Origin: Saccostrea cucullata
Taxonomy: Eukaryota
Assembly: GCF_032062105.1 (NCBI RefSeq)
Contig: NW_026919375.1
Coordinates: 62,001 to 126,000, forward strand
Length of the DNA stretch: 64,000 nucleotides
Direction: 5' to 3'
The notes below the pieces were generated by a model. It did no database searches and was not told the DNA's origin. It was given only the letters and a program-made list of their open reading frames with translations. Made by a program: the position numbers and the translations under genes. This document shows, in pieces, positions 1,215-61,441 of this stretch (positions within the stretch are counted from its first letter, which is position 1; every line of letters begins with the position of its first letter).

Positions 1215-2379
1215 GGTGACTTTTAACGACTCAGACACTTAATTGACTGTTTTTCACACTCTGGAATTCTGGGATAAAATCAAGAATCCTGATTCAATAA
1301 CGCATTCTGTCTCAACTGTGGAAGAATTTTATTTGAATGGATGTACTCCAAATTCCATCTTCAACACAGTGTTCACAACATTCAGAATCCACTGATTGTA
1401 ATGAAATTCAAGGTAAGTGTTTTCGCCCCTAATGACTGTCCGACCAACTTAAGTTTTGCAGACTGTGGAAACATTGCCACTCTATAAATATTTCTACTGG
1501 GCCCCCTCCGGAATCGATACTCCAGGAACTGGCGCGGTTTGACCATTTTCCGTATAAAGTTCCACTAGCCTTGGTTGTTACAGCAGACCCCTTAAACTCT
1601 TTATGGACAGGTGGAATAATATTGGTGCTTATTCAGGTAATGCAGTATGTCTGACAGCTGAAGGCACGCCGTCATCCTTTGCTTGTTTTCTCATACAGAT
1701 TGTTTGAAATTTAAGTACCATATGCTCGTAGCATTTGCTAATTTAATTCACACAATTAGCGAAAAGTATACGTGTACAATCGGTTTATTATTTTTATTCA
1801 TATCATAATTTAAATCTTGTGTTATCTTTAATGCGATATCAAAACGGCTGCTGCTTATTTTTTGTGAAAAAGAAGGAAGAAAAAGACACTTCAATCGTAT
1901 TCCAGCACTGAGTATCTTCACTGATAAATAAGAGGCATTTCAAACCACATTCCGCTGGTCGCCGTACATGTAACTACTTATCCTATTATGTTTAACAACT
2001 GTTACACTTCTGCGCTTTGTTGAATTAAACGAAGTCACATAAGGGGGTTTTGTCGACATTGAGCTCGTTAATACTGCAGTGATAGCGACGGATGAACCAG
2101 CAGTCGGGAGAATGTACATGTTTTTATTTATTAAATTTTTCTCATTTTCATGTTTTCCAAAATAAAATTTGAGACAAGGCCTCTGAGGCTCTGACCAATG
2201 ATGTAGGTTCGATTGAGAATAAAGATTTCTTTTAATTAAAAGGGAAAAAAGTAAAATTAATTTTTAATGGCAGATTGTGGATATCATTAGCCCCGTGATT
2301 TTATTTTTATTTATTTGATGAATAAACCTTTTTAAAGCTTGAGCTTAAGAGCATGTCAGCATATTGTATTACACATACT

Positions 2380-2912
2380 TAAATGTGCCTGTAATGATAT
2401 CTGATTTATTGGTATTTAAACGTGTCTGTCATGATCGATATTTTGTACATAAATCAAATGTGCCGCTTATATAATCTGGTTAATAAATACTTATATGTGG
2501 ATGCAATGTTGTCCGGTTTAAAGGTATGAAATTTGCCTGCAATGATGACTTATTTGTATTTAAGTGTGCATGTTATGATATATAGGTTACTTATATTAAA
2601 TTGTACCTGTGACGAGTCGACAGGATGCTCACTTCTCCATGGCACCTGATCCCACCTCTGATGTTTTGGAGGTTCGAGTTTGCTCTGCTCCTGATCTGTA
2701 TTGTTAGAATGGATATTTGATCCTGAACACTGTTCATTATCTCCATATTTTTTGTCAATGTATTAATATCTGGTTCATTGGAATCAAATGCACCTCCGAT
2801 AACATCTGGTTTACATGTATTTGAAATATTCTGGTTTATTGATATCTCAGTATATATGTTATGATATCTTATGTATGTTATGATATTTTGTTTACTGGTA
2901 TTTAAATAGGCC
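2380..2912. repeat. Old degenerate ~38-bp minisatellite interrupted by a dispersed repeat
   Basis: Recurrent AAATGTGCCTGTAATGATATCTGGTTTATTGGTATTT-like units on both sides of 2608-2752; one stray unit near 3252-3285. Confidence 0.65.
2608..2752 (+). mobile_element. Dispersed ~150-bp repeat (SINE-like or retroelement 3' tail), family S, copy 1
   Basis: TGTGAC..GTCGACAGGATGCTCACT..GGCACCTGATCCCACCTCTGATGTTTTGGAGG..TTTGCTCTGCTCC..TTATCTCCATATTT shared with copies near 8732, 15940, 23935 (-), 31299 (-) and 45245. Confidence 0.75.
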
Positions 2913-8731: not shown

Positions 8732-8847
8732 AGCACGCGGCAGGTATAACCGGTCGTCAGGGGTTGCTTACTCATCACAGGCACCTGATCTCACACCACT
8801 GATTCTTGAAAAAGTTCGTGTTTGCTCTGCTCCCAATTCGTATAATG
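8732..8847 (+). mobile_element. Family S repeat copy, 3'-truncated by the adjacent Helentron-like element
   Basis: GCACGCGGCAGGTATAACCGGTCGTCAGGGGTTGCTTACTC..GGCACCTGATCTCACACC..TTTGCTCTGCTCC. Confidence 0.7.
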
Positions 8848-9766
8848 TTGTTGTCCCCAGATTTCGCGAAAGTTCATTCGTCTGTCCGGCTGTCAGTCTG
8901 TAGTTCTGTTCGTACATCACAAAAACTTTAACCTTGGTCATATCTTTTGAACGAGAAGAAATTGGGGCTTTCATATTATACATGTATATTACCTGTGACA
9001 GACCTTTCTAAATACACTATGTTTTCCCCCTGTGACCTTCACCTTGAAGTTTGACTAACGTTTTAAAAAGAATTAACATTATGATTGGTCTTTCTTAATA
9101 CACTATGATTTTTTACCCTCGTCACCTGACCTTGAAGTTTGACCTACTATTAAATAACTTTAATCTTTCTCATGACTATTACGGCTTTTAAATTAAATCT
9201 GTGTATTACCTGTGACAAGATCTTTCTAAATACACTATAATTTTTACCCTGTGACCTTGACCTTGAAGTTTGTCCTACTTTTGAAAAATTAAAGACATAA
9301 ATTGGCCATAACTTTTGAATGAGAAGAGATAGGGCTTTCATATTAAACATGTGTATTATCTGTCATAAGACCTTTCTAAATAAACTATGATTTTTTGAGC
9401 TCGTGACTTGACTTTGAAGTATGACATACTTTTCAAAAAGTTTAACCTTGCTCATGGATTTTGAATGAGAAGCTAAAGGACTTTTATATTAAAACTGTGT
9501 ATTGCTTGTGATAAGACCTTTCTAAGTAAACTTTGATTTTGATTTTGTGACAGTGTCCTTGAAGTTTTACCCGATTTTCAAAAATGTTAATTTTTCCTTA
9601 TAAGTTTTGATTGAGAAGAGATAGGGCTTTCATATTTGACATGTGCATTTCCTGTGACAAGATATTTTTGAGAATGCTAAGATTTCTGACCCCGTGACCG
9701 TAGCTTTCACGATGGACCTAATTTTCAAAACTAGAGTGTTCCAAGGAACGCGTGTGTCGCTTGCTT
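8848..9766 (+). mobile_element. Helentron/DINE-like non-autonomous element (TGACCTTGA family) with ~150-bp internal tandem repeats
   Basis: 5' TTGTCCCC..TTCGCGAAA, GTCT/GTCC microsatellite, repeated TGTGACAAGACCTTTCT..TGACCTTGACCTTGAAGTTTGAC units; same family as 25182-26334 in the opposite orientation. Confidence 0.75.
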
Positions 9767-9866
9767 TTAGCTTCTTTCAAGATGTAACTAAATCTAAGAG
9801 TGGTTACCTATTTATATGCTACTAGCTTATACAGTATTTCAGGCAAATAAAATCTAGCATGATAGT

Positions 9867-11379
9867 TATTATTATTATTATTATTATACACAATTTATAA
9901 AGCGCTAAATATAATATAAAATTACTCTAAAGCGCTGTACATAAAATATAAGCATAGAAATATAAGCATAAAACATAAAAATTACAAGCACTATAGGACT
10001 AAAAATACATGTCAAAGCCGTAAGAATACACATAAATAAACTTTTAAAAGATTACAAATTAAAGCTATAAGAATATACATAAATAAACTTTTAAAAAGAT
10101 AAGAAATATTTATACATGTTAATTGCTGTAATGTCCCATGTTATAAGATAATTTAAATTTAAAAATTCAAAACAAATAAGAGTAGCTTCTTAGGAATAAT
10201 CTGGGTATGCAGTAGTAAATAAATAAGTTTTTAATAATTTTTTAAAACGAATAAAATTTCTTTCCAATCTCAAAGTTTGAGGAAGACTGTTCCACAATGT
10301 TGCACTAGTCACGTCGAATCGCCTGTCGCCATATGATTTAGTCCGCGCACGCGACTGAACAAGGAACATGGAGTTCTCTGAGCGTAGAGATCTTCTAGGC
10401 GTGTAAACCTGAACCAGTTCTTGTATATATAGTGGTGATGTTCCGTTTAAAGCTTTAAAAGTCTGTAGAAGCAGCTTGTACTGGATTCGATGTTCTACGG
10501 GAAGCCAATGTAAGTTGACTAACACAGGTGTTATATGATCATGTTTCTTTGTACGAGTAATTATTCTGGCGGCCGTATTTTGAATCTGTTGAAGTTTTGT
10601 TAAGGAACTGGTGCATATACCGTATAGTAAGGCATTGCCATAATCTAGACGGGAAATAACAAGTGAGCATACCAGGGTTTTACACGCGCTCTCTGATATT
10701 AAAGGTCGAATGCGTCCAATATTTCGCAGTTGATGGTAACATGACTTGGTAATGTTTCGGATTTGGTTATCCATGTTCAGCACAGAATCAAAGAAAACAC
10801 CTAAATTTTTCACACATGATGAGACTTTAATTTTATTCCCGTCAAAATTGATGCTAACTTCATTAAAATGATGAATTCTGTGTTTTGGGGCAAAGATAAT
10901 AAGCTCCGTTTTTTCTTGATTTATCTTTAGAAAGTTAGAGCGCATCCAAGAACTTATATCGGAAAGGCAAGTTTGCAAACGAGATGCTACGTCTATCCAG
11001 TTGCTAGTAGGTGCTATTGCCATATACAGCTGAGTATCATCTGCATAACACTGGAAACTCATGTTGTGTTTTCGGCATATATCACAAATTGGCTTAGCAA
11101 ACAGGCTGTAAAGCTTAGGTCCAAGGACCGATCCCTGGGGAACGCCAAATTGTAGATGAAAGTCTCTAGACTCGGATGAACCTATAGCAATACGTTGGTG
11201 CCGATCGCTTAGGTATGATCGTATCCATGACAAGGCCGCACCAGTTATACCAAACGAAAATTCTAGGCGATTGATAAGAATATTATGATCAATCACATCG
11301 AAGGCTGCAGATAAGTCCAGCATTAACAGAACAACACTTGAACCCTTGTCTAGCGCTGATGTTATATCATGGTGGACTC
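9867..11379 (-). mobile_element. 5'-truncated LINE of the L2/Crack (CR1 group) type
   Basis: RT ORF, then an AT-rich 3'UTR ending in AGCGCT...AGCGCT and a (TAA)n tail at ~9867-9886. The frame opens abruptly at ~11377 (VHHDITSALDKGSSVVLLMLD). No clear TSD. Confidence 0.9.
10190..11377 (-). CDS. LINE ORF2 fragment: reverse transcriptase and C-terminal region (no endonuclease)
   Basis: Motifs LDLSAAFDVIDH, GVPQGSVLGP, YADDTQLY, KNLGVFFD, SRLDYGNALL, HITPVLVNLHWLPV; ~395 codons without a stop. Confidence 0.9.
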   Translation of the reverse strand, partial: VHHDITSALDKGSSVVLLMLDLSAAFDVIDHNILINRLEFSFGITGAALSWIRSYLSDRHQRIAIGSSESRDFHLQFGVPQGSVLGPKLYSLFAKPICDICRKHNMSFQCYADDTQLYMAIAPTSNWIDVASRLQTCLSDISSWMRSNFLKINQEKTELIIFAPKHRIHHFNEVSINFDGNKIKVSSCVKNLGVFFDSVLNMDNQIRNITKSCYHQLRNIGRIRPLISESACKTLVCSLVISRLDYGNALLYGICTSSLTKLQQIQNTAARIITRTKKHDHITPVLVNLHWLPVEHRIQYKLLLQTFKALNGTSPLYIQELVQVYTPRRSLRSENSMFLVQSRARTKSYGDRRFDVTSATLWNSLPQTLRLERNFIRFKKLLKTYLFTTAYPDYS

Positions 11380-16108: not shown

Positions 16109-19100
16109 TTGCCTCATAGCAAATGGAGCACTTAGAAGGACATTGATTTCTGAAATGAATAAATACATTATATATTTTTCTTACTTCTTCAAAGACTGTA
16201 ATGCAATAATAAAGATTATGCTTCAATTTCTTTATTAAATATTTTATGGGATCGGGGGTATGATTTCATTTATTTTCATCATGGAATTCTCGTAATGGTA
16301 TTTAATTTTAGCAACCGCAATGCAGTGGTTAATTTTAGCATCAAAGTCGCAGATAGATATCAGTTTAAGTGTTATTGAATGTCCGACTGTCTTAATAAAT
16401 TAAACCACTAAAGATTATATCTACAAATGGTGTAGGAGTTTTGGAACAGTGTTTCGGTAGCTTTCATGATTTGAAAATCTCACTCTGTGCACTTATGGAC
16501 AATAGTTCAACTGATTCTGACTTTAATTTAACTGTTTGGTAAACCAGTTCATTAAAAGATTATATCATGTACATTTTATTGATTGATACTTGAATTAAAA
16601 TGTAAGGCAAAGTTCTTGAACAGTGTAATAACTACAAGGAATACCGGTAAAACAAAATTTTTAAATTACAATATCTACTTCATGAAATTCGCCTTAAAAT
16701 TATAAATGTTCATAAATCTACACCTCCACATACTAAATGCTTTATTTGACAGGGGTATAAAAAAGTTCAACTGCACCATAAAATTAAAACCGCTTTAACT
16801 TCGATAAATTTAATTTTACTGTTTGGTAACGAAACATCATAAATTTTATTTTCTAATAAATTAGTAATGTTTTTGTGAGCTATGTTATGTCCAGGCGGCG
16901 CAACCTCGAACATGACGTTTTTTCGATCTGAGTATTACCAAGAAAAAAAAAACATTTCACAATACAGTAAACTACATGTACTTTTAAATTTATTGATTGA
17001 CTTTTAGAAACTTGAATTAATCGTTAAAAGTAGTTGACACTGAGAAAAAGCGAAAAGATTCGACTTTGAACCTTTTTTTTTTTTTTTTTTCTGTCAACTT
17101 TTTTTTTGCCTGGCCCCCCCCCACCCCGCCACTGTTCAATAAAATTAGCAATTTTTACATAATTCTATAACATTTTATAGTGAATTTGTAAGAAGTGTCC
17201 AAACAATTAAGGGCTTAAAACAAAGAGATAGTTCTTTTTAATTCTATAAAGATTTGCCCCTGAAAAACAATGTGAATGTTTAAACTGGCTACAAACAAAT
17301 AAAATGCATCCAGAATACTTGTTTTTTAATGCCAAAATAGATTCAGAGAGAAAAGAGGTGCACAGTAAATGTAAAATTATAAATGTCAAAAAATCGTTGA
17401 TAAGATTTATTTAATATGCTAATATAACCAAGCGAGGATCTTTCCCAATGTATAAATCCATTTGCAACATTACATGCATTGAAAAGCTGCTTTAAAGTCA
17501 TATGCAGTCCTGTTTTAATTACGAGATAAGTGTTTGAGGTAGAAGAATCAGACATTGAAAGACAATGACGTTGTCTGACGTCATGAAACTGAACGGCAAC
17601 GTTAACAGCGCCGGGTGATCATATAATGTCCTTTCTATTCTATTGTCTTCCCACAAATTTTTATTAAAATAGAAAATTTGGTGTTATGAATTCATTTTTA
17701 TTACATTTTGTTAAATATGAATTTAGTTAAATAAATGAGAAAAATATAAAAACACATTTGTCAGAATGTAACAAAAAGCAGGTATTTTATCTTCAATTTG
17801 TCTAAGATTTCCTTGTTTATTCAGTATAAAACAGTTTTGATACAGGTGAAAAAAACATACAAATAAATTTTATTTTCTAATAAATTCAATAAGCATGATA
17901 ATTTTTGTGTTAATCTCTTTTGTGATTTTGTTATGTGTAGGCTAAGGGCGCAACCAGGTGTTCAAGTTTACTCAATTACCGTGACCATTTTTATGTCACG
18001 TGATCACTCTGTTTAATTAATCGTCTTTATTTGGAAAATTTTTACAACTTTCTTTTGTTAAGAAACTAAATTTGACATCCAAAAATCAGGTGAAAAGTGA
18101 TGGGACGATTTCAAAGAATAAACTTCAGTTATTAAAAATATAAATTCTTTGGATTTTTACAATTTTTATCATATAATATAATTGATTCATTTTCTATTAA
18201 AGCACTCTTTTTATAGAATAAATTTTAAAATATTAAGTATTTTATTGATAAGTATTTTTATGTATTTCCTAAAACAATAAAGTTTTTATTGTTGCATAAG
18301 TTTTATGCTTGAAAGTATTTGTATAGTTTATGGTTGTATGTTTTATTGTAATAAACGGGTTAAGCGACAGTCTCAAATAAATGTAGTGTTTTTAGAAATG
18401 TAATTTGAAATTTAGCGCCATTATATTCATTGTGCGCTCTTTAATATAAGGAGGTAAAAATGTTATTTGTTTGTATCGAAAAGCGCTGGAAAAAAAAAAA
18501 TGTGAGATAAGTTTAAAGCTTTTGATTGTTATGAACCTTTATAATTAAATGATTTTGCAGTTTCCACTTCAATGATCTATGATTAAAGTTAAAAGAAAAG
18601 TGTAAAGTAGATAATGTTTTATTTCAAATTTTCTCTATTTAGTAATTAATGCTACGAGACTGGCCGCTGTAACATTAGTAGTTTAGATTTATATTATATC
18701 TATGTACATGTAATTTTAGATTTCCATTTTACAGGGTAAATGTCCAACCCTTGTACAGTCAAGGATTAACTTTAAAACGTATTTTTATAATATTTTACAT
18801 TGTATTTGTAACTGGTGACTGTTTGTTTATAAGATTATTAAAACAATGACGATTTCAAAGAATAAACTTGTTATTAAAAATATATTATTTCTTTATTCTT
18901 TGGATTTTTACAGCCACCGTAGAGGGCAATCCAAGCAAAATATAGAGCAGTCCAAATAAGGAATATAACCAAGCGAGTGATTCCCCTAATAAATAAAATA
19001 CAACACAAGTTCACGTGTAACCCAAAATATCAACGTGACACTATAATAATTTGGCAAATAATGAACCTATCAAGCTAAAATTTTCAACATTTCTTCATGT

Positions 19101-19477
19101 TTTGTGGTTTCATGTTCCTGTTAAATTTTGAGAGCACGGACCACATAGTACATGTACTAAGTTTATTGCCTCAGTCCACGAACTTTTTGATAACCCATCG
19201 TAGATTCAGTGATGCCATGATTTTACAAGAAGTGAGTACGACTTACAAATCTCAAAAGAGGCGTTGTAAGAACAACCGGTAAACGAACAATCAAAACAAG
19301 GTCTTATAGGAAAAACTGATCGGCTTAACCAGACGCCTGTGGATATCATTTTTCACGACAGTCCTCAGCGAGTATAACCTTGTAAATTCCATATCTCGGC
19401 GCAAAAAAAATCCCTTAAATCAAATGAAAGATCTGTATACTACAAAAACTAATTATTAAATGAAAACACAAAAATTA

Positions 19478-20504
19478 CGAGGGCCGTTCAAAAATTACGC
19501 GGACTGTGCTATTATTTACTCTTACAGACGTCATATAGTTATGGAATTTTACAGAAATATACATCTTAAAGGTTCCAATAAATTTTGGGCAAAATTTCTA
19601 TATTTTAAAAAAATTCTACTAAAATTATCGGTATTTTGATATCGCTGATGGAGAGGTACGGAGCACGACAAAAAATTTAAAGCAAAAGCATGCAGAATCC
19701 AAAATTTAACTCATTCATTTTCTATAATTCGCGATATTTTTCGACAATTTTCTCAAATGTATCTTTAAATTGTTCTGTTATTATGTATTTATATTTCTGG
19801 CGTGATATTTGAAGTACTAACAGAAATAAAGTGATTTTTCTCTTATGCGATTCCAGTGAAAACGACTGTGAAAATGACGTCTCCAGAATTGACGGCGCAC
19901 CACACTTTAGTTAAATTATGTGTAATGCTCAAGATATCGCCAATATAGATCAAAAATATGCAGAATAAAACATGTAGTAAAGTAGGGTATTCGTGACATT
20001 CGTCCACAAATAGCAAGTTGAAATTTTAGACCGTTAGACCTCTGTAAAAAGGCTATACGGGAGGACGGGAAGAAGATTATAGACCAAAACTTTATCCGTA
20101 CTGTAAAGAACGTGATTGAGATTCACCAATATCACACTATATATTATAAATACCTGCATTTTTTTTTGTTTTAAAACAAAAAAAAAATTCTTTACTTGTG
20201 TAATAGATTTTAAGCTTGACAAGAAATATTGTTTGGACGTTGTGTAGATAAGGTAACTCAAACTGTACAGGTACTCTTGGGAAAATGTTTAGAAAATGAA
20301 AAAAAAAGATTTTGCTGCTCCGTGACTTAATGATATGTCTGAAAAATCACTCAAAATTGATACCAATTTACAACATTTTGATGTGAAATTTTGAAGACCA
20401 TATAAGTAAAGATTATTTTATATTATGTGTGACATAGTGCCCGATTATGTCGTCAAATATTTTTTTCTGTGCAACAAGTCCGCGTAATTTTTGAACGGCC
20501 CTCG
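19478..20504. mobile_element. Tc1/mariner-type MITE (1027 bp)
   Basis: Perfect 28-bp TIR CGAGGGCCGTTCAAAAATTACGCGGACT at both ends, TA on each side; no transposase ORF. Confidence 0.92.
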
Positions 20505-20606
20505 TAAAAAAAAAAAAAATCCATAACACGAGTGATCTACCACAAAGTGATCCTGTATATTCAGCGAAAGTATGTCACTCCTGACTCATGGCATAATATA
20601 TACCAT

Positions 20607-21356: not shown

Positions 21357-22800
21357 GAGAAGTGACTTTTCGATAACTATACTTGTATAACATGACTCAA
21401 AATCATAATGAAAGATATAAAGAGGTCGTGAACAAACCTATTTTCAAAAGCTGACGAAATATTTGAATTAACTAGGGGGAGGTTAATGCAACGTTGTAAA
21501 TTGTGCATTTACCGCTACCTAATAATATTTTCAAGTCAGATAATATCTTCTGTGAAAAATCTCTCCAACAGAATTCTTGAACTCAAGTGAAAGAACTTCA
21601 AACCACAAAATGACGTTGCAATTCTTTAACTTATCTACAAAATTCTTTAACTCAAGGGCAAGATCTCTCTATAAAATAATGTCTTTTAAAAAGGAAACGA
21701 AGAAGGACTTATTTACTAGCATTTCAAACAAAACCTTCTGTCTCTAACTTTTCTTTATGTTTACCAGACTGGTGCTTATCCATTCAAAGAGACGTAACTG
21801 CAGTTATTATTCAAGATCTCTTGTTAACGCAGTGGAAAAAAAAAATATGTGAAGAATTTCTTTGAATTTTCTGTTTTAAAGAGGTCTTATTAAACATCAT
21901 TTTACATGTACATGTATTTAGTAGAACACATATTTGCATGTGACTTTGAGTGAAGTCATTATTAGAAGGGACGCACAAATAAACATATTTAGAGTAGCTT
22001 CTCTTTATATCTAAAATTTCAGTTTTCGAGTAGCTTCTCTTTATACATGTACAATGTATCTAAAATGTAAGCTTTCGAGGAATTTTTTTTTAAAAAAATT
22101 ACATATACGTACCCAAGGAGATATATCAACAAGAGTTGCTGAGTCACAATGGTCACCTAATTTAAGAGAACTTGCTATATGTTATTATTTTGTTTAAGAC
22201 TGGTTGTCCTCTGTGGCTTCATTCACCTCTGAGGATCATGATACGAACAAACACGAACCTTCTTTATATGGAATGAAGCTTTTGTCTAAGTTTCACGTTT
22301 TCTGGTGTAGTGGTTCTTGAAAAGAAATTTAAAAGATGCCATTAAATTTTCACTATTCTTTTTAAAAAAATATTTTTCCTCCTTAGGAAAAAAAGTTACG
22401 GTTCTTTTTAAAATTGAACAAACCTGAATTCATTTTTTCCAGGGATCATTGTTAAAACTAACTCAGTGGTTTTTCTGAAAAAGTTGAACATGTGAAGAGT
22501 TTACGACTACTATGACAACAATGACTACACACAAAAGCCTTTCTTTTTAATCAGAAAAACCCATCAATTTTAAAATAAAGTTTCCACATACATTTAGATA
22601 AATAATACACATGTTAATTTGATAAAAAATAACCGATATCTGATTATGAACGACAGGTTTAACTCATTGTGGGAGAACAGAAATAATGATGGTATATACT
22701 ACATGTAAGTATTCCAGCTTATGTACCGTGATTGTGGGCTATGTTAAAGATATGCTGATCAATTCAGATTCCTGTAAAAATGAATGCATATTTCTATTGT

Positions 22801-22960
22801 TGCAGGGCTTTGCGGGGGTGGTGGGATACATTTGACGAGTGAGGGATTTAAGAGGCCGTCCCTTGTAGAGAAGAGTTATATTACGATCAATAAATTCTAA
22901 AATTAACAATCTTCATGTATTTAATATATAATTTACCGGTAAGTCCCGCAAAGTGCTGTA
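22801..22960. mobile_element. Possible small degenerate MITE
   Basis: TGCAGGGCTTTGCGGG ... CCCGCAAAGTGCTGTA (13/16 inverted match). Confidence 0.4.
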
Positions 22961-23934
22961 AAAAATTATACAGATTTCTAATCTTTTTTTTTAAAATAAG
23001 GTATTCTATTAAACTATCATTACATGTATCCTGCGAAACGTGTTACGGAAAGAGGAATAACTCTTCTCTTCGAAAATAATCGGTTTAGATACCAATGAAT
23101 ATTGTTCTAGCTTCGTTTAAAAATGCATGAAAAAGATTGCTTGGTGTGAGTACTTTTCGGTTGTAATATAAATGATTTTATGTGAATTTTCCACTCCAGC
23201 TGCAAGTTGATTTTTCTTTAATACAATGTATAACTTTTTTTTTAACTTCGAACGACATGAGAAAATGAACTGTTTCTTAACTGATACTAAATTCAATCAT
23301 TTTTACTATATCAAACAGCGATTTAGTGTTCAGCATAATTCATCCACCTGTAAACATGCTACCAAAAGAACAATTAACATCAAGAATTCACTGCTTAGGA
23401 TTGGGTTTGAGGACTGCTGAATTTTATTCTTCTGTAAAAAAATAAAGAACAGGAAAGGCTGGTTTATAATCATTACAACAGAGCCCAGCAAGAAAAACAT
23501 AGATTTTAATCAACTACTTCTCTTTCAGGGGTTATTAATGATTCTAAATATAGAAGATGGAAAAGTTTTATTTTCAAACATTTATACTGTTCATACGGAG
23601 TATGTTATTGTGATATATTTTATTGGAGCCCGCAGGTAATCTGCAACTGACATGTGCGAGTTAGATTAAAGTGAATCGATGAAGAATATGTTACAAATTT
23701 GATACATGTAATATTAGTGCAAGCAGTCGTAAACACACATTTTTATAATGAAACGCACGAATCAATTACATTAGAACTATCATAAGAATATAATTTTTGC
23801 TAGCAAACTATTTTTTCATGTGGATGATGATCAAACCATCTAAATTCCTAGTTTCATTGTACTGGTATATTTAGTGCTCTCGGTCACCTTGAACAAAAGG
23901 TGTGTCGACGATAATAAGACGAAAAACGAACAGC

Positions 23935-24075
23935 ACAGCATGAGATAAGTCCATTCAAACATTATTAAACAGGAGAAAAGCAAACACGGAACTCACACAC
24001 ATCAAATGTGGGTTCAGGTGCCATTGAGGAGTGAACATCCCTTCCGACCGGTCAAATCTGCCATGTGTTCCTTGT
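23935..24075 (-). mobile_element. Family S repeat copy
   Basis: Reverse complement reads CACATGGCAGATTTGACCGGTCGGAAGGGATGTTCACTCCTCAATGGCACCTGAACCCAC. Confidence 0.7.
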
Positions 24076-25181
24076 TATAACGAAGAATACCAGAAAGCAG
24101 TAAACACTTTGTTAGGTTGCGAATTTCGTTTGAAAGACATTCTCGAAAGTAGCAGGGGGATCGGAAGGTTCGGAACCCGCTGGGACTTTTTAAATTAATT
24201 TTATACAAAAATTGGCCGGCTCAGATGGCGGTTCTTTGCCCACGAACCTTTCAAGCATAATATCTACCAAAGCTTTATGAACATTTCCTCTCAAATGAAC
24301 TTCAATAATAAAAGTGTGATAATTTGACATTGTTTATTCTTGTATATCTATATGTATGACTTTACTTCTGACATACATATAGACCGTTTTCATTTCATTG
24401 ATATGTATTACTGTTTGTTACCAGCAATTAAGCAAAAACTCGCCCATTATCAACCCCCATATTTTAGCTCACCTTTCATTCATGTAATTTTCAACAAAAT
24501 TAATGTTAATAACTTTAACCTGAAGAGACAGAGCTTCCACATGTGTACTTTACACGTGTTGCTTGAAACCTTTACGAATGCTCTTCATATTATAGCATGT
24601 TTTGCTTCAAAATCTTCAACTTTTCAGGATGACGGATAGACAAAACAACTCTATTATACTTCACCAAAACCAAGAAAACCCCAAAAGCAGTGGACCACGT
24701 TTATCTCTCGTTTCTTATAAGTTTTCAGTGCTAGGGTTTCGGAATGCTCAGATCATATATTTGTCTCTCGTCCACATTTTCAGTTATTGAACGCTCAGAA
24801 AGTAATTTGAATCGAAATAACTTATGTAATCTATGTGTTACCCTCTGTTGAGGTACGGGGAGACGATTAATTGTGATCGATAAAGGCTAAGTCTGGCAGA
24901 GGGGCTATTTACTGGGACGTTAACGTTATGGAAGCATTTCTATGTATAAATGTCATAATTATATTCCCAGCAAGAAGTTGTCAGCGCCCAGGCAAAGAAT
25001 TGACACTTGGTTATTTACATACTAGAATGTATTAAACTAAGTGTTTTATTCTTGATATATTGTGATTTTAGACCCATTTGGATGAATTCCACATTTTAAA
25101 AAAATGTCATTTCTAATTTACGTGTTAGTTATATAGACACGCCCAACAACCTAGCCAGTTCCTTAAATATATAATATTGGT

Positions 25182-26334
25182 AACAAGCAAATTCAAAGAA
25201 TTGTGGTCCCCCGCTTTCGGTGTCTTTGTGGGTGAGATGTCATTTTTTATGACATGTTGTGTCTAATATGAACACCAGTCATATGTCATTTATTTAGAAA
25301 TTATCACTGAAGTTGATTTTTTTTAAAAATAAGGTCAATTGTGAAGGTCAAGGTCAAGGGGTAAGAATTCATAGCATGCTCGGAAATATCTTGTCACAGG
25401 TAATGCACATGTCAAATATGAAAGTCCTATCTCTTCTCAATATAAGGAACAAGATGTGTTTGTGAAACACAGATGACCTCGTATGGCAAAATAACAAAGA
25501 TTTAACATTTCTTAAATCAAATGAAATTAATTTGATATTACCCAAAGTAGGGTTTTCAGACAAGAAATACGATTTTGAAATACAAAATCCCAACCCCAGC
25601 CCCCCCCCCCCAACCAATCCCAACCCCTGTTCAAAAGAAAGTTATGGCCAAGGATAAATCTTTGAAAGGTAGGTCAAACTCCTAGGTGAAATGATCTGAG
25701 TTGTTGATTTCTTAAAAAAGGTCACAAGTAATACATATGTGAAGGATGAAAACCCTAACCTTAACCGTTCAATAGTTTTGGCCAAGGTAAAAGTTTTGGA
25801 AAAGTAAGTCAATCTCCAAGATCAAGGTCAAAAGGTCAAAGTTCTTGGTATCCAATGAAAGGTCTTCTCATAAGGATTACATATGTGAAGTACGAAAGCC
25901 CTAGCCCTTACCATTCAAATGTTATGGTCAAGGTTAACCTTTTTTTCATAAGTACGGAAATCTCTAAGGTCAAGGTTAAAAGGTTAAAATTGTTGGTATC
26001 CAATGAAAGGCCTTTACACAAAAAATGCATATGTGAAATATGAAAGTCCTAGTTTCTACCATTCAAAAGATATGGCCAAAGTAAAAATTTGGACTTTTTT
26101 GTGTAAAGTGGGTCAAACTCCAAGGTCAAAAGGTCAAATATGGTGGTACCAAAAAAAGGTCTTCTCACAAGGGATACACAAGTGAAATATGAAAGTCATA
26201 GCTCCACTAAATCAAAAGTTATGGGCAAGGTTAAAGTTTTTGTGACGGACGGACAGTCGGACAGACTGATAGATTGACAGACAGACGAATGAGAATTAAT
26301 GTCCCCTCGCTTTTGCGAAAGCGGGGGACAAAAA
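25182..26334 (-). mobile_element. Helentron/DINE-like non-autonomous element (TGACCTTGA family), composite
   Basis: Ends AACAAGCAAATTCAAAGAATTG (stem-loop)..TCCCCCGCTTTCG and (GACA/GACG)n..GTCCCCTCGCTTTTGCGAAAGCGGGGGACAAAAA (subTIR plus inverted repeat); internal units of ~146-150 bp containing AGGTCAAGGTCA. Confidence 0.8.
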
Positions 26335-43196: not shown

Positions 43197-43727
43197 ACAG
43201 GGAGGGGGCAGATTTACTGTTTTTGTTGCCATGTGTTAACGTTAAGCTTAAAAATATTCCAGGACCTTAATCTTAATAACTATTGTAAGACAATTATTAA
43301 TTGCAAAAACTTCATTCACAAATTTTCGGTTAAAAATCAATCCGCAGCAATTGATTTTTAGTACATCTATTTTGCAAATAAACTCCAAAACGCTTGCACC
43401 AGGGTTCATACTTTCTCCTCTAGGAATACACTAAGTATAAAGTGATGTCCGTAAACTATATTCAAGTTTCACTCGCATAGTAACTGTAAATTTAACTAAA
43501 AGTGTACTTTCATTTCGGTTAACAGCCTCGAAAAAGCAAAAACGATAGTACTAGTGCTGCGGTGTTTCCGATTTGAGGATCTAGGTTACAGATATTTGAA
43601 ATGAAAATGGCAACAATCAAGCGTTTAATAATTTCATAAAACCTCGTTAATGAATCATTTACATGTAAATCAGTCTGTATTTAAGTGAAATCCAAGAAAT
43701 AAGATGGGGTAATTGAAAGTTAGATGA

Positions 43728-44410
43728 TTATGCCCCCGTAAACGAAGTTTCAGGGGTATATAGTTTTTGTCGTGTCCGTCCGTCTCCCTGTCTCTCTGTC
43801 TGTCTCTCTGTCTCTCTGTTTGTCCGCAAAAACTTTAACCTTGCCCATAACTTTTGATTTAGTTGAGATATGACTTTCATATTTTATTTTTCTGACATAA
43901 CTTGCCAAATAAATTTTGAACTGTCATTTTTAAAACAAAAATTTTAAACTATATTTTTTGGCCATATCTTTTGACGTCAAGAGCAGGACATTTATACTTC
44001 ACATATGTAATGTTTGTTGAGATATTCATGCTTATTCGTGAAAAAACTTTAACCTTGGCTATAACTTTTGAACTAAAAATGTATACTTTATATATGTCAT
44101 CCTTGTGAGAAAATATACTTTTACATTTTATTTTGTAAAAAAGAATGACCATAAATTTTAAAGGGTTAAGGAAATTACATATTGGAAATGTAAATATTGC
44201 TAACAAGAAAATTTGACCCTTTGACCTTAACCTTAGGTTTTACAAAAAAAAATTTTTTAAATGAAAATGGCAACAATCATGCGTTTAATAATTTCATAAA
44301 ACCTCGTTAATGAATCATTTAAATCAGTCTGTATTTAAGTGAAATCTTTTGGAAATAAATTTATTTGCATTTAAGAAAATTGAAATTTAGAGTGTTTCAC
44401 AAACACATTT
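43728..44410 (+). mobile_element. TGACCTTGA-family Helentron-like element, rearranged
   Basis: TTATGCCCCCGTAAACGAAGTTTCAGGGGTATA, GTCC/GTCT microsatellite, AAAACTTTAACCTTG units, 3' GTGTTTCACAAACAC hairpin. Confidence 0.7.
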
Positions 44411-47025: not shown

Positions 47026-48001
47026 GGGCAAATATCATCAGTAATGAGCTATTTGTACAATGCACGTCCATTTCTAAAGGCGTAAATTAAAATTCATTAA
47101 TAGATAAAAATTAAAAATACAGTCATTCATATATGTGTATATGCATATAACGCATGCATTATTCATCATGTTTAAATTTTTCATGTTATAATTTAAATTA
47201 CTTTTTTTATTTTAAATACCTCAAATGAAAAGAAAATGTCAGTATAAACAAGAAAGATTGACTTGCAACTCTCTCTCTCTCTCTCTCCCGTACCAATCAC
47301 CACCTGTCCTTGATAACGACACCAAAGACAACGTCAGTAAATCAAGTTTGATGCAGACGAGACTTTTTTAAACAAAAAAGTGTCACATGAGCATTGAGAA
47401 ACGTTCTTGAGATTTGTACTACGCATGTAAGCCGCTAGTGATTGATATTTTCATAGATTGGCTTGATTACAATGAGCTAAGTATTCAAAAGCTTCATGAC
47501 ACTTTTTGCAGTGTGTTTTAAAGCAACATGGCGTCGATCCCTCTACATCAGGTGGTACTGTCATTGTAACAGAGGACTGAGAGCAAGTAATATACCCACT
47601 TCTCCCTAATACAATAGCATTTAGTAATTAGTTTTGTCTTGTTTGTTCTTTACAAAAACACTCCTGGGTGTCGTTTTTCAGTAACTCAATTATCACAGAA
47701 TGTCTTTGTGCAGTTTACAGCTGGTCTACGCCATATTAATTGAACTCTCTTGTTTAGAGATTTAATACTGAACGAGTGCTAAATTTTACACGGACATTCG
47801 TACTTTTCCATTTTCTTTCAAAATGTAATTTTCTTGGTAAATGAAACTTTTGTTTAAATGTTGTATATGGTGTATGGTGTCTCTGCAGCTTATCTGGCGC
47901 CCTAGACATCGACCTTGTGGAATCCGGATTACTAGATTCCGGAATTATAGGCATCTACCTTGTGAAATCCGGATTAAAAGATTTGTAAAAGCAAAACATA
48001 C

Positions 48002-48430
48002 CTGCATTTTCCCTCCCTATGTCAGTTGTCATCCTATCTAAAAATTCTTCAACCTTTTCAAACTTGGCGTATTCCGGATTACTCGGCATCCCATAATGCA
48101 CTCCGTCGGCGACGATGTGACAGTACTTGTTTGTGATGTAATCTTGTCCGTTTGGGTTGTAGATGATTTTAGTCTTGGACCACCGATACTCGTGCAAAAC
48201 AGCCATTAACATGAGAACTAATGAATTCACACTGGACCCAACCCTGGTCATCAGACGAAATTCCGAGTTCTTTAAGCGAGCGAAGTCACTGGCCATGGCG
48301 CCTGGGGTTATCATTGGGAGGTTCCAGTACTTTATCTGGCGGACAATCGGGGCAGCGGCGTAGTCACAGCAGGGACCGAGGAACAGGTGAACCTCCCTGT
48401 CCACGTAAAACTGTATAGCTTCCTTCATAC
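48002..48430 (-). CDS. NPR3-like: Natriuretic peptide receptor-like, module A, second coding exon
   Basis: Acceptor ctttcgtcAG|GT ATG joins in phase 1 to give CSIEV-G-MKEAIQF. Contains LFLGPCCDYAAAPIVRQIKYWNLPMITPGAMASDF...LMTRV, the ANF_receptor hallmark (cf. NPR3 [30 protein letters not shown]). Donor GCAG|GTATGT after 48002 (429 nt, phase 1). Confidence 0.92.
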
Positions 48431-48697
48431 CTGACGAAAGGAGACCAAAAATGTAATATTGTTAAATTAATTAGAAACAAGTTGTGTTTATGAGTCACTG
48501 ATGCCCCCGTATTAAATGACTAGAGTAAAAAAATTGAAATGCAAGTCAAATCCGAGGTCAAGATCAAAGAGTCAAAATTTTAAGATATCCAGAGAAAAGG
48601 CTTTGTCACAAAGGAAACGTACATCAAAGTCAAATACATGTACATGAATGTGAAGTACGAAGTCATTGCCTCTGTAATAGTTCAAAAACGAAAAAAA

Positions 48698-49018
48698 GGT
48701 CAATAATGTTTGTATATCAGGGAGGGTCTCCAGGTCAATAATGTTTGTATATCAGGGAGGGTCTCCAGGTCAATAATATTTGTATATCAAGGAGGGTCTC
48801 CAGGTCAATAATGTTTGTATATCAGGGAGGGTCTCCAGGTCAATAATGTTTGTATATCATGGAGGGTCCCCAGGTCAATAATGTTTGTTTATCAGGGAGG
48901 GTCTCCAGGTCAATAATGTTTGTATATCAGGGAGGGTCTCCAGGTCAATAATGTTTGTACATGTTTATCAGGGAGAGTTTCCAGGTCAACAATGTTTGTA
49001 TATCAGGGAGGGTCTCCA
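48698..49018. repeat. 35-bp minisatellite, 9 copies
   Basis: Unit GGTCAATAATGTTTGTATATCAGGGAGGGTCTCCA; 9x35 plus one 6-bp insertion = 321 bp. Confidence 0.95.
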
Positions 49019-49172: not shown

Positions 49173-49950
49173 TTTTTAGCTCTATTGGTCAGAGACCAGA
49201 AGAGCTTATGCGATAGTAATGCGTCCGTCTGTCTGTCTGTCTGTCTGTCCGTCTGTCTGTAAACAATTTTTTAGAATGCTACTCCTCCTACAGTTTTGGT
49301 CTGATTTCAATATAACTTGGCACACAAGTAGACCACACTAAGATACATAATTCTGTGTATCGGTTTTTGATTTCAATGAACATGTTGCCGTTGTTACTAA
49401 AAATAGAAATTTTTGTGAAATTCTTTCAAAATACTACTCCTCCTACAGTTTTGGTCCGTTTTCAATATAACTTGGCACACAAGTAGACTACACTAAGATA
49501 CATAATTCTGTATATCGGTTTTTGATTTCGATGAACGGTGTTGCCGTTGTTACTAAAAATAGAAATTTTTGTGAAATTCTTTCAAAATACTACTCCTCCT
49601 ACAGTTTTGGTCCGATTTCAATATAACTTGGCACACAAGTAGACTACACTAAGATACATAATTCTATTTATTGGTTTTTGATTTCGATGAAAGGTGTTGC
49701 TGTGGTTATTAAAAATAGAAATTTCTGTTAAATACTCTCTAAATGCTGCTCCAAATAGTTTTAGTCTGATTTTAATATAATGTGGCATGCAAGTAGACTA
49801 CACTAAGAACATAGGAGACTTATAATCAAGGATCATTATTCAATTTATTGCTGTTGTAAAGTTTCAAATTGCAACTACTTAAGTACTTTTCTCTTCTTTT
49901 GCTATAAGTACAAACCAGTAGAGCTTCAGTCTCGACAGAGACTTCTGGTT
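49173..49950 (+). mobile_element. Helentron/DINE-like element with ~155-bp tandem repeats (nested)
   Basis: TTTTTAGCTCTATTGGTCAGAGACCAGAAGAGCT, (GTCT)n, CTACTCCTCCTACAG units at ~49279, 49433, 49590 and (degenerate) 49746; 3' AGAGCT, hairpin AGTCTCGACAGAGACT, then CTGGTT. Confidence 0.85.
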
Positions 49951-50901: not shown

Positions 50902-51652
50902 TTAAACCCTGTATAAGAATCTTTTCGCAAAGAAAGCATGAAAACATAAAAACTCTAACCAATCAATTTTTATGGGAAAGATTCAAGTTTTTGCGGACAA
51001 ATAGCTAAACAGACAGACAGACAGATGAATTGACAGACAAAAATCATATGCCCCCGAATCTTGGATTACAGGGGAATAATAACGAGGCCTTACAAAGCTT
51101 ATCGACAAATTATTACTATCATTATTAGAAATATGGAACAGGACATCCTGTACTTTGTTTTACTAGGCAAGGAAATAAGATTTTTTTTTCTTTCTAACTG
51201 CGGTTGATTTGTTAATTTTATCCCACTAAGCAATCGCTTTTGATGTTCTGTGTTATCTTATTAAAAACATTGATATATGTTTTACTTTCAGCTTTCTAAG
51301 TATCTGATCTGTTTTTTCAAAATAAGCTTTAAATTCAGTCACGCAAATACAGCTTCTTAAGTTTATATACTATTTTAATTTGTAAGATAACATAGTCAGA
51401 TATCACTTTGTTAAGCACGCATTCATTATAAAACACGATTTTTTTTTATTAAGGACGCTGATCATTCGGTCAGAAACAATGAGTTTTGAGTTCATCATAT
51501 TAGAGACTCAGTTTTAAAATGAAGTTTGAAATTGAATCTCTTCGTGCCACAATATCCATTTCTACTTATTAATAATACGATCCGAGACAGTTCGAAATAT
51601 CTGAAACCGTCGTGTAACAAGTTAATAGAATTATTGAACACGTCAAAATAAG

Positions 51653-55796: not shown

Positions 55797-56140
55797 CCGT
55801 AGTTTTTCATCTTAAGTAAAAAAAATCGATAAAAAAAAAGCATTGACCGAGTTCACAATTCTGTCCTGTTCAGGTGCAATATCTTCTAGAAGTGGGTGCA
55901 ATATCTCCAATAAATGGATGCAGTAACTCCTATAAATGGATGCGGTATCTTAGTCCGTAGTTTTTCATCTTAAGTAAAAAAAATCGATAAAAAAAAAAGC
56001 ATTGACCGAGTTCACAATTCTGTCCTGTTCAGGTGCAATATCTTCTAGAAGTGGGTGCAATATCTCCAATAAATGGATGCAGTAACTCCTATAAATGGAT
56101 GCAGTAACTCCTATAAATGGATGCAGTAACTCCTATAAAT
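55797..56140. repeat. Recent ~157-bp tandem duplication ending in a 22-bp minisatellite
   Basis: CCGTAGTTTTTCATCTTAAG.. at 55797 and 55954, near identical; CTCCTATAAATGGATGCAGTAA units follow. Confidence 0.9.
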
Positions 56141-56449
56141 ATTCATTCATGTTATGTGTAACGCAAGTATAAATCCCATAATGTTATCGGCATCTGTCTC
56201 CATTGGATGTTTTATTCATGTGAACTCATGTATTTAAGCAGCTATTCCATAATCCTATCTTCTACAAATCACCTACATATATTTTCTAAGATACGGCATT
56301 TTGAGATACTTTATTTCATCTCTTCCAACAAATGCCCCCGACCAGTTATGACCAAAAAAACTCGTTAACTGCTTTATGTGCAGCCCTAATACAATTAAAT
56401 CTAAACTTTAACCTTTTCAAAATATATAATATAAAGATAATTTCAACTA

Positions 56450-56886
56450 CCGTATATACTCGCCTATAAGTCGGTCCGCCTATAAGTCGGTTGTATTTTT
56501 TGACTTTATTTTGGTGGGATTTGCTATTGACCCGCTTATAAGTCGGTACAATTTTTGCCAAAATTTGGTGACAATTTCAAGTAAATCCATTGATGTTTTT
56601 ACCTGGTTTCAATTAATTTTTCTTCGAAATGACGCAGATATTTAATCTTAAATTATTAAGAAAAAAGGCAATGCTCACTTAAAATACAAATAAAATTATT
56701 AAAATATGTAAATACATGTACTTTATATATATAATTTTTCAATTATCTTATATATATATAATCGGAAATATAAGATACTATTTCAGAAAAATACCAATCT
56801 CTTTATGACTCGCCTATAAGTCGGACATAGAGTTTTGGACATAAATTTAACTCCCAAAATACCGACTTATAGGCGAGTATATACGG
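56450..56886. mobile_element. pogo/Tigger-like MITE (437 bp)
   Basis: Perfect 26-bp TIR CCGTATATACTCGCCTATAAGTCGGT with TA on both sides; internal repeats of CGCCTATAAGTCGG. Confidence 0.92.
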
Positions 56887-57427
56887 TACTCTTTTATCGT
56901 AAAGAATGCTTTTACAATAAAAAGCAATGTCATTACCGTGTTTTTTTTTTTAGTCAAACTCTATGCCACTTTGTTCGAGTAGAACCGAAAAAAAAACATG
57001 TAAATAACGATGTCACATATTTGTGTATCCTATCCTAATCAAAACTGGATTAAGATCAAACCATAAAAAATATCAATGTCTTTCCAGTGAGCAGTGAGAG
57101 GATGTAACTAATTAGGAGAATGCAATGTCGAAAAATGTCGTTAACAAATGCGCAACAGATGACGGCGCAGGTAAGACGCAGGCTTAACCTAATGAAAGCA
57201 TTCTAACCCGTCATTGTGTTGAGCTTTTTAACTGAATCATAAAATATATTTGAGGTATAATTATATATCAAGCACAGTTTATTACATCTAAAGAAAACCT
57301 GTAGCGATACAGATGAATTATTCACTTATCCCTTAATGTAGTGTCTTTTTAAGTTTCCCTGTGATATAAATAAGTTATCAATGATCTAAATACTGCTCAG
57401 TGGACCTTATAATTGCCAGATACTTAC

Positions 57428-57680
57428 CCACTTCTATGCTACATTCGGAATCTGCAAAGTTGACGGAGATATTGTGATTTGGGAGCAGTTCCATTTCTCG
57501 GACTTTTTCGTTAGCGATCTCCAGGGCGGGCCTGATCCGCTGGATGGAGAAGAGTCGCCGGTTATCCCGGGGGATGATGGTAGCTATTTTTATCACCTGG
57601 GTATCTTCCTCCATTCTACCTGACACTAAATCTAGCACTAGTAACACTATTGACACTAATAAGTGTAATTTCACAGCCAT
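57428..57680 (-). CDS. NPR3-like: Natriuretic peptide receptor-like (ANF_receptor ectodomain), module A, first coding exon with signal peptide
   Basis: ATG at 57680 in AAAATGG context; hydrophobic leader MAVKLHLLVSIVLLVLDLVSG; IATIIPRDNRRLFSIQRIRPALEIA...FADSEC resembles the vertebrate NPR3 N-terminus ([23 protein letters not shown]...YEDSDC). Donor G|GTAAGT after 57428 (253 nt, phase 1). Exact orthology (NPR3-type vs receptor guanylyl cyclase) cannot be decided here. Confidence 0.88.
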
Positions 57681-60600
57681 TTTAAACTCCACGGCATTCA
57701 ATAAACTCCTCAAATAAAATACCGGAAAGGGCCCTATAGAACGAATTCCCGAAATTGTCGCGATACAGATGAACATTCCATACAACCACCATGTATTTCC
57801 ATCTTCTTACACTAAGGGAAACGTTAAAGAATAAAAAATAGCACAATTAATGATTTAATTAGGATTAAAGGACATTTCTATTTGCCGGCTAAATCCTCTT
57901 TACTCGGATATGAAGTCCTACAAACTCTGAATTCCTCGATCTGAGATTTTTAATGTAACAAACATCATCCACGGCAGAGAATTTTTCTCAATATTGTTTG
58001 CAAAATGAGACTTAGCATTCTTCTCTCTAATCCGGCAGTTTTCATTTGCACATCAGGAAATTCGCTGCCTGAACTTCTTATTACTTGATTAATAAAAAGT
58101 AAGGTCTATGTACCTCCTGGGATACTCACGCTTGCCTGTTGTTAGCGGGATTTTCGTTGTCATTAGGTAGTTGAGTGTAGACGGGGGTAAATGACGAGGT
58201 ACAAGGTACAGCGACAAACTAGGAACTGTTAGAGGACGGTGTCATAGCCAGTTATAATAATCAGTCCAAACGTCAACTCGATCAATAATCCAATTACAAA
58301 ATGTGAATCACCTTAAACTATCATCCTGTGTTAAGCATCCAAAATCTTCAGATTACAAGGAGAGAGCGTCGTCCTTACGTCGTCCTTACAGCATTATATG
58401 CCATCTTAAAATACCGGCGACAAAATCCTGTCATCTTTTTAAATCGTTAAGTAGGGAACTCTGTTGGCTGTCTGTGTGGGTAATGCTGAGGTATGGGCTG
58501 ATGATCTTTTAAATAAATTGAATTCTTTTCAATATCGTTATTTGTTGTGAAGTAAGATACTTTTACAAAGGGAGGCTAGGGTTATAAAGCTCCTCGTGTT
58601 TTCGCCCTCCTCTGGTCCGATGAACGTATTGATCTCGGACAAAGGCCTGCAAATGCTTTTTCGCCTTTGACATGAAATTAATAAAGCACTTGCATTTTTA
58701 TGTATCTACACACTAAATCATCTCTTGATATGAAAATATAACATTCCCCGATATTATTGCTGACCATTGATTTGCTTTTACGACGGGTCGCGAAAACTTA
58801 AGACCCCATATTGTCAATGGAACGCTGGGACTTATTCATCAAGGAAGTTGGTTTCCACCAGTATTTCCTCGAACGCGACCCCCTGATTGGTGGATATTTG
58901 AATAATTCCTGCCTACAACAATATTAAGAAAACTCTAACGGAAATCCTGTGAAGAATGAATCCGAAGGAGATAAGAACAGTTCGGATAACAACACGGGTA
59001 TAATGTGATACAAAGGAGTAGCACATTATCCACTTTATTGAAAAAACACACATCTTAAGATAAATCAATACTGATTTTTATTAAGAAATCCTTATTAAAA
59101 TGTCATTAAAAAAGAAAGCTATTTGAAATGATTTTAAGCTATAAAAAAGCGTTAATAAGTAATATCCCCCTCCTCGAGCCGAATTATTATAGGTTTTGGT
59201 ATTATTCCTGGTTATTCTGTGACGTTTCTATATATACGGAGCGGCAAGCTTCAGATCCAGCCGCCCGCTGTCAATGGCAGACGTCTTTGTGTTATCCTGA
59301 CACCTGACGCTGGACTCGCATCTCAGCTGTAGAAATCGACTTCAATACCTCTCAGTAAATCATACAGACTAATCCCAATCAAAGTGATATTTGACATCAA
59401 TGACAGAACATTTCTTTTTCATTTTCGTTTTAATCAGACAAAATATATTATTTTAATTCCAAGTGCCTCTTTCAACATACAGTAAAAATTAAAAGTAATT
59501 TGTCAAACTTTGATCTATTGCAGCAATCAAGTCGATATTTCCTGCATTCAATGATCTTCAAAGGTTGGATTCCAACTGATATTAAACGCGGCTTTTATTT
59601 CCTGTCCTACATTTGTCAAGACTTGTTCAAATTCTCTTTCAGTCAACCGTAGTGTTTCAAACACTTCCAAAAGATTACTATAATTCCAAACAAAAAAATT
59701 AGTTGTAAATAATAAAGATTTGTGTAATTTCATACATTCGCTTGTAAAACAGTTTTTTTTAAAAAGGGGAATGGCCATGTCCAGCATATTTTAGGCAGAT
59801 GCAATTGCATCGTTTTCGCTTTCCGTCGCTATGTGATTCAGTTAGAATTTAATGATGTTACATGTAGCTCTACGGAATATACATGTATAAATATGATATT
59901 CATACAGTGTTAATGCAGGTACTATAAGGCCTTGTGTTCTAGGGACACTAACTTTTACATGGCTCCAAGAGCACGAACTGAGGACATTAAGTCAAACTTT
60001 CAAATGTAACTTCAAAAATAATGTTGATAATTATTATTAGTTTTGATAATTAACAAAATATTCATCAGTCTGATTTTAAATTTTAAACGAAATTGCGAAG
60101 TTTTAAGATTTATGAAATTCAAGAAATTAAAAATTAAACTTTTTACTTAAGTTTGTTCTCAGTTTATGGTTCTATACCTTCTGCTTTTGATATTTACGAT
60201 ATAGCAGCCACTGGCGGACACCGGTTATTGTAAATAGAATTTTTCTTACAAATGTTGATAATGTTTGTAATATATATTTATATATACATGTATGTATGTA
60301 TGTACATGTATATATAATGCCTTATGCATGTATGAGCTTTCGCTATATGCTTGTAAACATAAACAAAGAGAGATAAATACTGAGTGGGTTATTTTAACAG
60401 AGTGTGATCTGCAGTTTTCCTCTAAATTCTTTCAATTTGTACCATTACCACCCTTTAATTTAATTCCAGTAAAATGATCAAAAGTATTCTTAGACTAACA
60501 CAAGCTTACATTTTACATTTTTCAATAGTAAAGAAGTATTCATATTTAACCAAAAAAATATTATTAATAAACGAGTTTCCATTTTCTGCCCGTTTTGTAG

Positions 60601-61441
60601 AGTGGAGCACTTTGTGTGTGTCAGTCCGTTTGTCTTTCAGTCTGGGAAGAGTCGCACTTACACATCTTCTACAGAATTTTACTGAAATAATACATCTTCT
60701 TACAGATATAAAATCGTCCTTTTATCAAAAATAATTATTATATAGATCGGTTTTAGCGTTAATCAATTGCAAGCAAAATATTCTATCAAAATATATCGAA
60801 TCAATAGATATGAGTAATTGTCCGGTCAATTAAGCAAGAAGGGGGTGGGCTGAAACAAATTGCAACAGAAAATCGTTTTGCAGCATACATATGTATAGAT
60901 CCCAACGAAATTGGAATAAAAAAAATCAAACGAAACCCAATACCGCAACATATTTTGTTGTGTTGTAGTAAAAATTCATTTTTTTTCTTTCAACTAGCTT
61001 TTTTTTTACTTGTTTAGTTCGGAGGGGGGGGGGGGGGCAAAATTACACATTTTCAAAATGACCCTGTTTCTGATGTTATCATTTTTTTCTTTTTATTTCT
61101 GGCACGTCAAATATCAAAATTGTGAAAACGCTGAACAGTGAACGTTGTGCTACAGTACCAGGGATAGAAATTTCTGTGTTCTTCTTTCAAAACACAACTT
61201 TTCAATTAGTTTTGTTTCAATATTAATAATATTTGACACACAGATACATGTAGGTAGCTCTGATGAACAGAATGTTTGCCGCGGACTATATTATAAACAC
61301 TCAACAAGAACATAGCCGCCGGTCAGACTAGTACCAAGAAGAAGAAAAATACTTTAAAAGTAATAAATAAAAAAAATCTCTGAGCACAGAATAACAAAGA
61401 ATACAAGTCACACCATCATAACGTTTTAGTGCATGCTATTT

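Follow-up and report, generated by a model that had tools for sequence, protein, structure and literature searches.

What accounts for the abundance of one palindromic word, TACATGTA, in the DNA of Saccostrea cucullata? The window analyzed here (64,000 nucleotides; positions 62,001 to 126,000 of contig NW_026919375.1, assembly GCF_032062105.1) consists of AT-rich host DNA (66.8% AT), carries natriuretic-peptide-receptor-like exons and a long interspersed nuclear element (LINE), and contains 36 copies of this word (1 per 1.8 kb), dispersed over positions 1965 to 61252. A preliminary description, made from the sequence alone, had placed 35 of these copies exactly, missing one at 8979, and had attributed them to transposon excision. 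Our analysis indicated that most of the excess copies are 6-base insertions at TA dinucleotides and that these are very probably excision scars of TA-targeting members of the Tc1/mariner superfamily with CA..TG ends.

The excess itself was readily apparent. Shuffled versions of the window contained 1.69 ± 1.41 copies, and none of 100 shuffles reached 36, upholding an earlier estimate of about ten-fold or greater over-representation. Markov models of order 0 to 3 predicted 1.8 to 3.9 copies, rising to 7.6, 16.4 and 26.9 for orders 4, 5 and 6, the high orders absorbing the sub-words of TACATGTA itself. In the whole assembly (1.17 Gb in 23,869 contigs, including apparent haplotig pairs) there were 362,932 copies versus 125,227 of the backwards control, a count itself raised because it overlaps copies of TACATGTA that are stacked or flanked by CAT. 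Sixty 10-kb stretches of large contigs (600 kb) contained 257 copies, compared to expectations of 24.6 (order 2) and 54 (order 4), and TACATGTA was the top-ranked word by z-score in this sample once simple repeats were set aside. Approximately 0.5% of the TA dinucleotides of the genome bear the word. Clustering in the 60 stretches was mild (mean of 4.3 and variance of 6.0 per 10 kb), long arrays were rare (four units at 2 places), and no relation was detected between density and CpG level (rho 0.07, p 0.62). An 11.4-kb segment of the window (23711 to 35099), repeat-rich and with an unshifted CpG level, contained no copies where about 6 were expected.

The origin of the excess was examined by comparing repeat homologues. 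Wherever a TA-NNNN-TA word had a homologue at another locus, that homologue was scored for its fit to the word or to a bare TA. The sample was non-redundant and 1.09 Mb long; 34 loci, either duplicates or second haplotypes, had been removed before this and the size-spectrum, open reading frame (ORF) and element-census counts. It contained 406 TACATGTA sites, 82 with and 324 without a homologue. Non-palindromic TA-NNNN-TA words served as controls (1,200 used of 2,231). The homologue was 6 bp shorter at 32 of the 82 TACATGTA sites but at only 6 of 372 control words (Fisher p 6e-21), demonstrating the proposed insertion of CATGTA at TA for most of the excess copies. A TA was retained on both sides of the insert, as in a Tc1/mariner footprint. 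The empty homologues read TA in 21 of the 32 cases, TG or CA in 8 and other letters in 3; since they were 69 to 94% identical to the filled copies, departures from TA are expected at this divergence of 6 to 31%.

These comparisons also bear on whether slippage, point mutation or CpG decay could generate TACATGTA from TA-rich and (TATG)n DNA. Background copies, at about 10%, do arise in such ways: homologues of the copy at 8979 to 8986 align without a 6-bp gap, the sole homologue of the copy at 56713 to 56720 reads TACTTGTA, again ungapped, and both copies, like a LINE-borne site, are probably point derived. The copies at 60285 and 60303 lie within a TATG run. For the excess, however, CATG was missing from both flanks of many empty sites and so was not copied locally; other TA palindromes lacking matching element ends were rarely inserts (AATT, 1/48; TTAA, 0/36; ATAT, 1/26; TGCA, 1/26); and density was unrelated to CpG level. 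Slippage, point mutation and CpG decay are therefore refuted as the source of the excess, for which we consider them highly improbable, while holding for the background copies.

Several window sites show the insertion individually. The clearest is the scar at 43660 to 43667, whose counterpart in a 91%-identical duplicate is a bare TA at 44320 to 44321; this pair, cited in the preliminary description, is a clean comparison of TA with TA plus CATGTA. For the scar at 19149 to 19156, one homologue at another locus of the genome (L125) reads TA only. For that at 37816 to 37823 the repeat homologues lack the 6 bp, and most of them show CA, which a single transition separates from TA. Two further comparisons were less simple than first described. 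The pair at 21992 and 22028 had been listed as an empty/filled comparison; it differs by 13 rather than 6 bp, two scars, +6 (CATGTA) and +7 (CAATGTA), being stacked at 22044 to 22058 relative to the empty copy near 21992. In a 35-bp minisatellite, the 6-bp insert in one unit (48957 to 48964, the insert proper being 48959 to 48964) is real but reads TACATGTT, an ambiguous and probably decayed scar; another unit (48872) has TT in place of TA. A stacked double scar, TACATGTACATGTA, occurs at 21903 to 21916 without a homologue for comparison.

A likely source for the inserted bases is present in the genome. Matches to a Tc1-type transposase (PF13358) gave 1,183 candidates, of which 150 were scored, many without stop codons. 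The resident Tc1-type elements are TA-flanked, with terminal inverted repeats (TIRs) starting CAG, CAC or CT, and the bases inserted at scars match the terminal bases of the CA..TG elements. One of them, L013, is a DD34E Tc1 with a 313-amino-acid open frame, and a competent family is predicted from it and from the stop-free matches. Furthermore, empty, occupied and scarred copies coexist at the same TA of a repeat family. Among 12 matches to one TA of a young family, 1 carried an exact scar, 3 were occupied and 8 were imprecise; six of the latter belong to one subfamily and could also be explained by a 2-base substitution. The occupants are an 880-bp element (twice) and a 191-bp miniature inverted-repeat transposable element (MITE), each with a duplicated TA and CA..TG TIRs. 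The 880-bp element has a TIR in common with L013 and 70% identity to it, as a derivative of the L013 family. At a satellite TA with 13 matches, 5 had a clean +6 insert, 2 had extra TA units, one was +7, one adjoins an end belonging to a CAGT element family and 4 were of other forms. The preliminary description is thus supported in naming Tc1/mariner-type CA..TG elements as a likely source; sites still occupied by such elements, which it had expected at orthologous positions, were found among paralogous repeat copies though not between alleles.

In Tc1 and Tc3, transposase cleavage falls 2 nt within the element at both ends. Such a cut would leave a CA-3′ overhang on each flank, and the two overhangs, being unable to pair, might both be retained by germline end joining; fill-in across the break by an X-family polymerase (PolX) would then yield TA-CA-TG-TA, which is TACATGTA. 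Occasional addition of one base would give TACA-N-TGTA, and elements ending in CT, CC or GG would produce TACTAGTA, TACCGGTA and TAGGCCTA by the same route. Enrichment of words derived from other TIR ends is a prediction peculiar to this scar model, and all three sister words were in excess in the 600-kb sample (TACTAGTA, 42 versus 7.0 expected; TACCGGTA, 18 versus 3.3; TAGGCCTA, 14 versus 2.6), with +6 inserts at 5 of 12 testable sites (p 5e-6). TACTAGTA occurs 57,814 times genome-wide (control, 38,885) but is absent from the window, where TACCGGTA provides candidate scars at 16642 to 16649 and 22934 to 22941. The single source family proposed earlier is not supported: CA-ended families are many, and scars of the CT, CC and GG types occur as well. 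Tc1-type families with CT after the TA (L007-L010, L015, L016 and L028) are candidates for TACTAGTA, and a CC..GG-ended element of the type at 56448 to 56888 (TA-flanked, non-autonomous, with a 28-bp perfect inverted repeat including TA, and the MITE containing the copy at 56713) would leave TACCGGTA.

The size spectrum, in which controls were limited to 700 words per class, was dominated by the +6 form. Inserts were detected for the +7 form, TACA-N-TGTA, at 6 of 13 sites (controls, 2/190) and for the +8 form at 2 of 10 (4/219). Sleeping Beauty-type 3-nt footprints are TACAGTA and TACTGTA; these +5 forms were only 1.2-fold enriched and were inserts in 3 of 54 cases versus 1 of 207 controls, and the fully filled 3-nt form, TACAGCTGTA, showed no enrichment in 600 kb. 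The +4 forms TACATA and TATGTA had an observed-to-expected ratio of about 1.0 and were inserts at 3 of 221 sites (controls, 1/201), so that +4 footprints do not dominate as they do in Caenorhabditis elegans.

Scars may also be favored targets of new insertions and would, as a consequence, stack; 9 stacks were seen against about 1.2 expected, a roughly sevenfold excess. Base preferences at scar flanks were T at +3 (0.50 versus 0.36) and C at +1 (0.28 versus 0.17), the element flanks available for comparison numbering only 26 and including doubtful elements. Two intact Tc1-type elements (L025:1231-1240 and L014:1230-1240) have a left end abutting TACATGTA, having inserted at an earlier scar.

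A number of observations weigh against excision as the source. In the paralogue test, 37 of the 82 sites were filled in the homologues too and 13 were ambiguous; 3 of the 32 empty homologues represent one stacked event, and a few others rest on poor alignments. The three site states come from paralogous copies and so represent independent events. No allele pair of element and scar was found in the haplotype pairs; reads from related organisms were too diverged around two sites in one comparison and swamped by repeats in another. In 600 kb an automatic census, with two tandem-array loci removed and some entries doubtful, gave 5 CA, 6 CT, 5 CC and 5 CG candidate elements, numbers that the excess scars (about 232, 35, 15 and 0, respectively) do not track. 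The predominance of CA and the missing CG scar might be explained by how abundant the families once were, by cut offsets that differ between families or by decay of CpG. A TA-flanked, CG..CG-ended element at 19476 to 20506, presumably mariner-like, is young, with perfect TIRs and three relatives in 600 kb; neither its predicted scar, TACGCGTA, nor TACGATA was in excess. Finally, Pol lambda-like and Pol beta-like exons are present in the genome, but no Pol mu exon was found by an exon-wise search, which is insensitive.

Some of these points would favor a process that writes CATG into TA without a resident element, such as abortive transposase attack, capture of short fragments of element ends or a terminal transferase with sequence bias acting on breaks at TA: scars outnumber resident CA elements by about 45 to 1, element ends match the scar types poorly, and the occupied/scarred allele pair is missing. 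Such a process would nevertheless have to insert, in several classes, precisely the first two TIR bases and their complement, at the same TA that elsewhere holds full elements, and we regard it as improbable. For excision, the ratio of 45 scars per element would require, by inference, a few excisions per million element-generations at an assumed mutation rate of 1e-8.

Excision of a very active family had been proposed, with a 6-bp CATGTA peak expected between haplotypes. Across apparent haplotype pairs totalling 142 kb and carrying 2,221 substitutions (contig pair C0, being unaligned, lay outside the comparison), no 6-bp indel peak was observed, nor was a clean TA/TACATGTA allele pair, where about 3.7 gains were estimated for a steady state; both results count against the excision reading and against high present activity. 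Of 35 sites, 29 were in both haplotypes. The 6 that differed included one +6 insert next to a base change, as well as small deletions and complex alterations. No haplotig was found for window positions 35001 to 38600. Alignments of LINE paralogues (L033 versus 29 loci), mostly of young copies, contained no CATGTA indel. One-mismatch neighbors of TACATGTA were in excess by 207 to 262, compared to about 232 to 235 for the exact word, and constant gain with neutral decay is calculated to give a ratio near 1.1. This near 1:1 relationship argues against a recent burst or strong purifying selection; the scars have likely built up over a long period while decaying neutrally.

The same spectrum bears on selection of TACATGTA as a protein-binding site, for example for an Irx homeodomain or, in Phytophthora, PsMyb37. 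PMC3520976 and PMC11134190 treat the word as a transcription-factor site. Here it arises as an insert within repeats, satellites and a transposase gene rather than as a conserved site, and the one-mismatch excess is about that predicted by neutral decay. Selection for binding is thus largely refuted as the origin of the word, and we assign it very little likelihood; some copies may possibly have been co-opted later. Long ORFs contained 1 TACATGTA site in 67 kb versus 19 to 26 expected, the depletion anticipated earlier, but since many of these ORFs belong to young transposons, this is no clean test of selection. In the window, the LINE ORF (10190 to 11377, RVT_1) and the receptor ORFs at 47955 to 48461 and 57378 to 57806 are free of the word, in agreement with the earlier statement for these ORFs.

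An inserted CATGTA brings no stop codon in any frame (MY, HV or TC is added) and supplies an ATG on each strand. Its frame-preserving character, suggested previously, is illustrated by a scar in a Tc1 transposase gene copy (L022:2008-2015), where two residues are added in frame relative to L013 and L017 (HNY-MY-INS). Judging from the letters alone, the copies at 22700, 52891 and 61245 would make the following bases splice-donor-like (GTAAGT/GTAGGT). Within 60273 to 60315, the copies at 60285 and 60303 lie on either side of a (TATG)n run, and scars may seed microsatellites in this manner. Other repeats were noted in passing. Tandem arrays occur in the window at 62732 to 63827 (31-bp unit), 38872 to 39322 (166 bp), 49275 to 49813 (156 bp) and 9183 to 9662 (146 bp), those with longer units being members of very high-copy dispersed repeats; the 166-bp satellite has an oyster-like appearance. 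A long (CG)n run in the sample L113-L172 contributed 562 CGCGCGCG words, which is unusual for an AT-rich genome.

One of the commonest "motifs" of this genome is therefore likely to be a fossil record of transposition and not a protein-binding signal. For motif discovery this is a caution that a high-ranking palindromic "binding site" can turn out to be a scar. Among the mutation classes of this genome, sequence-specific micro-insertion driven by transposons would be a major one. The scars would allow past movements of DNA transposons to be counted and dated without reliance on the copies that survive, and they offer evidence on the repair pathway acting in an invertebrate germline. More speculatively, and with less than even confidence, we suggest that the host repair kit sets the scar type, PolX lineages turning every germline exit of a Tc1-type element with 2-nt overhangs into a fixed, stop-free +6 palindrome. 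The approximately 300,000 sites would then form a datable, family-coded log (CA, CT, CC and GG) that outlives the elements and seeds ATGs, splice-donor-like sites, two-residue insertions and Irx/Myb-type sites, and the process may be the origin of the TACATGTA "regulatory motif" in other eukaryotes.

The concept of an excision footprint is old. The literature searched (subscription journals and supplements lay outside the search) contained no description of such scars at a genome-saturating scale, the word appearing there instead as a promoter motif of Phytophthora. The present analysis adds the controlled paralogue test, copies occupied by a resident family that can be named, sister scars within a single genome and the hypothesis on PolX. 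Sleeping Beauty-type elements belong to the same superfamily and follow the same logic, but here +5 forms are only a minor class and the filled TACAGCTGTA is not enriched. This system resembles C. elegans Tc1 in its TA target, CA..TG ends, scar derived from two terminal bases and, as proposed here, end-joining repair. It differs in that +6 footprints dominate and hundreds of thousands are inherited whereas in C. elegans the +4 footprints TATGTA/TACATA reportedly make up 78% and repair by nonhomologous end joining is somatic (10.1101/2022.08.01.502254). The word had been called the classic Tc1 footprint; PMC3520976, which cites Eide and Anderson 1988 for Tc1 footprints, terms taCATGta rare in C. 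elegans. Mammalian Pol mu is reported to fill in and join 3′ overhangs that are not complementary, in a templated manner and best at up to 2 nt, and beyond that more weakly and with more template independence (PMC2396419). Two 2-nt overhangs joined with its help would yield the same product, now and then with bases added independently of a template, and the weakness of Pol mu beyond 2 nt would fit both the +7 minority and the missing filled 3-nt scar; the exons found in this genome are of the lambda-like and beta-like kinds only. According to PMC12828229, Drosophila and Caenorhabditis lack PolX, and nematodes and flies are likewise given there and in PMC2895639 as being without these polymerases. 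As this genome combines +6 scars with PolX exons and C. elegans +4 scars with no PolX, a dependence of scar type on PolX may be hypothesized. Phytophthora motif-1 (AM-20) is the same abundant palindrome, TACATGTA; PMC3520976 and PMC11134190 read it as a transcription-factor site and dismiss a footprint origin, whereas in the present genome its origin by insertion was demonstrated.

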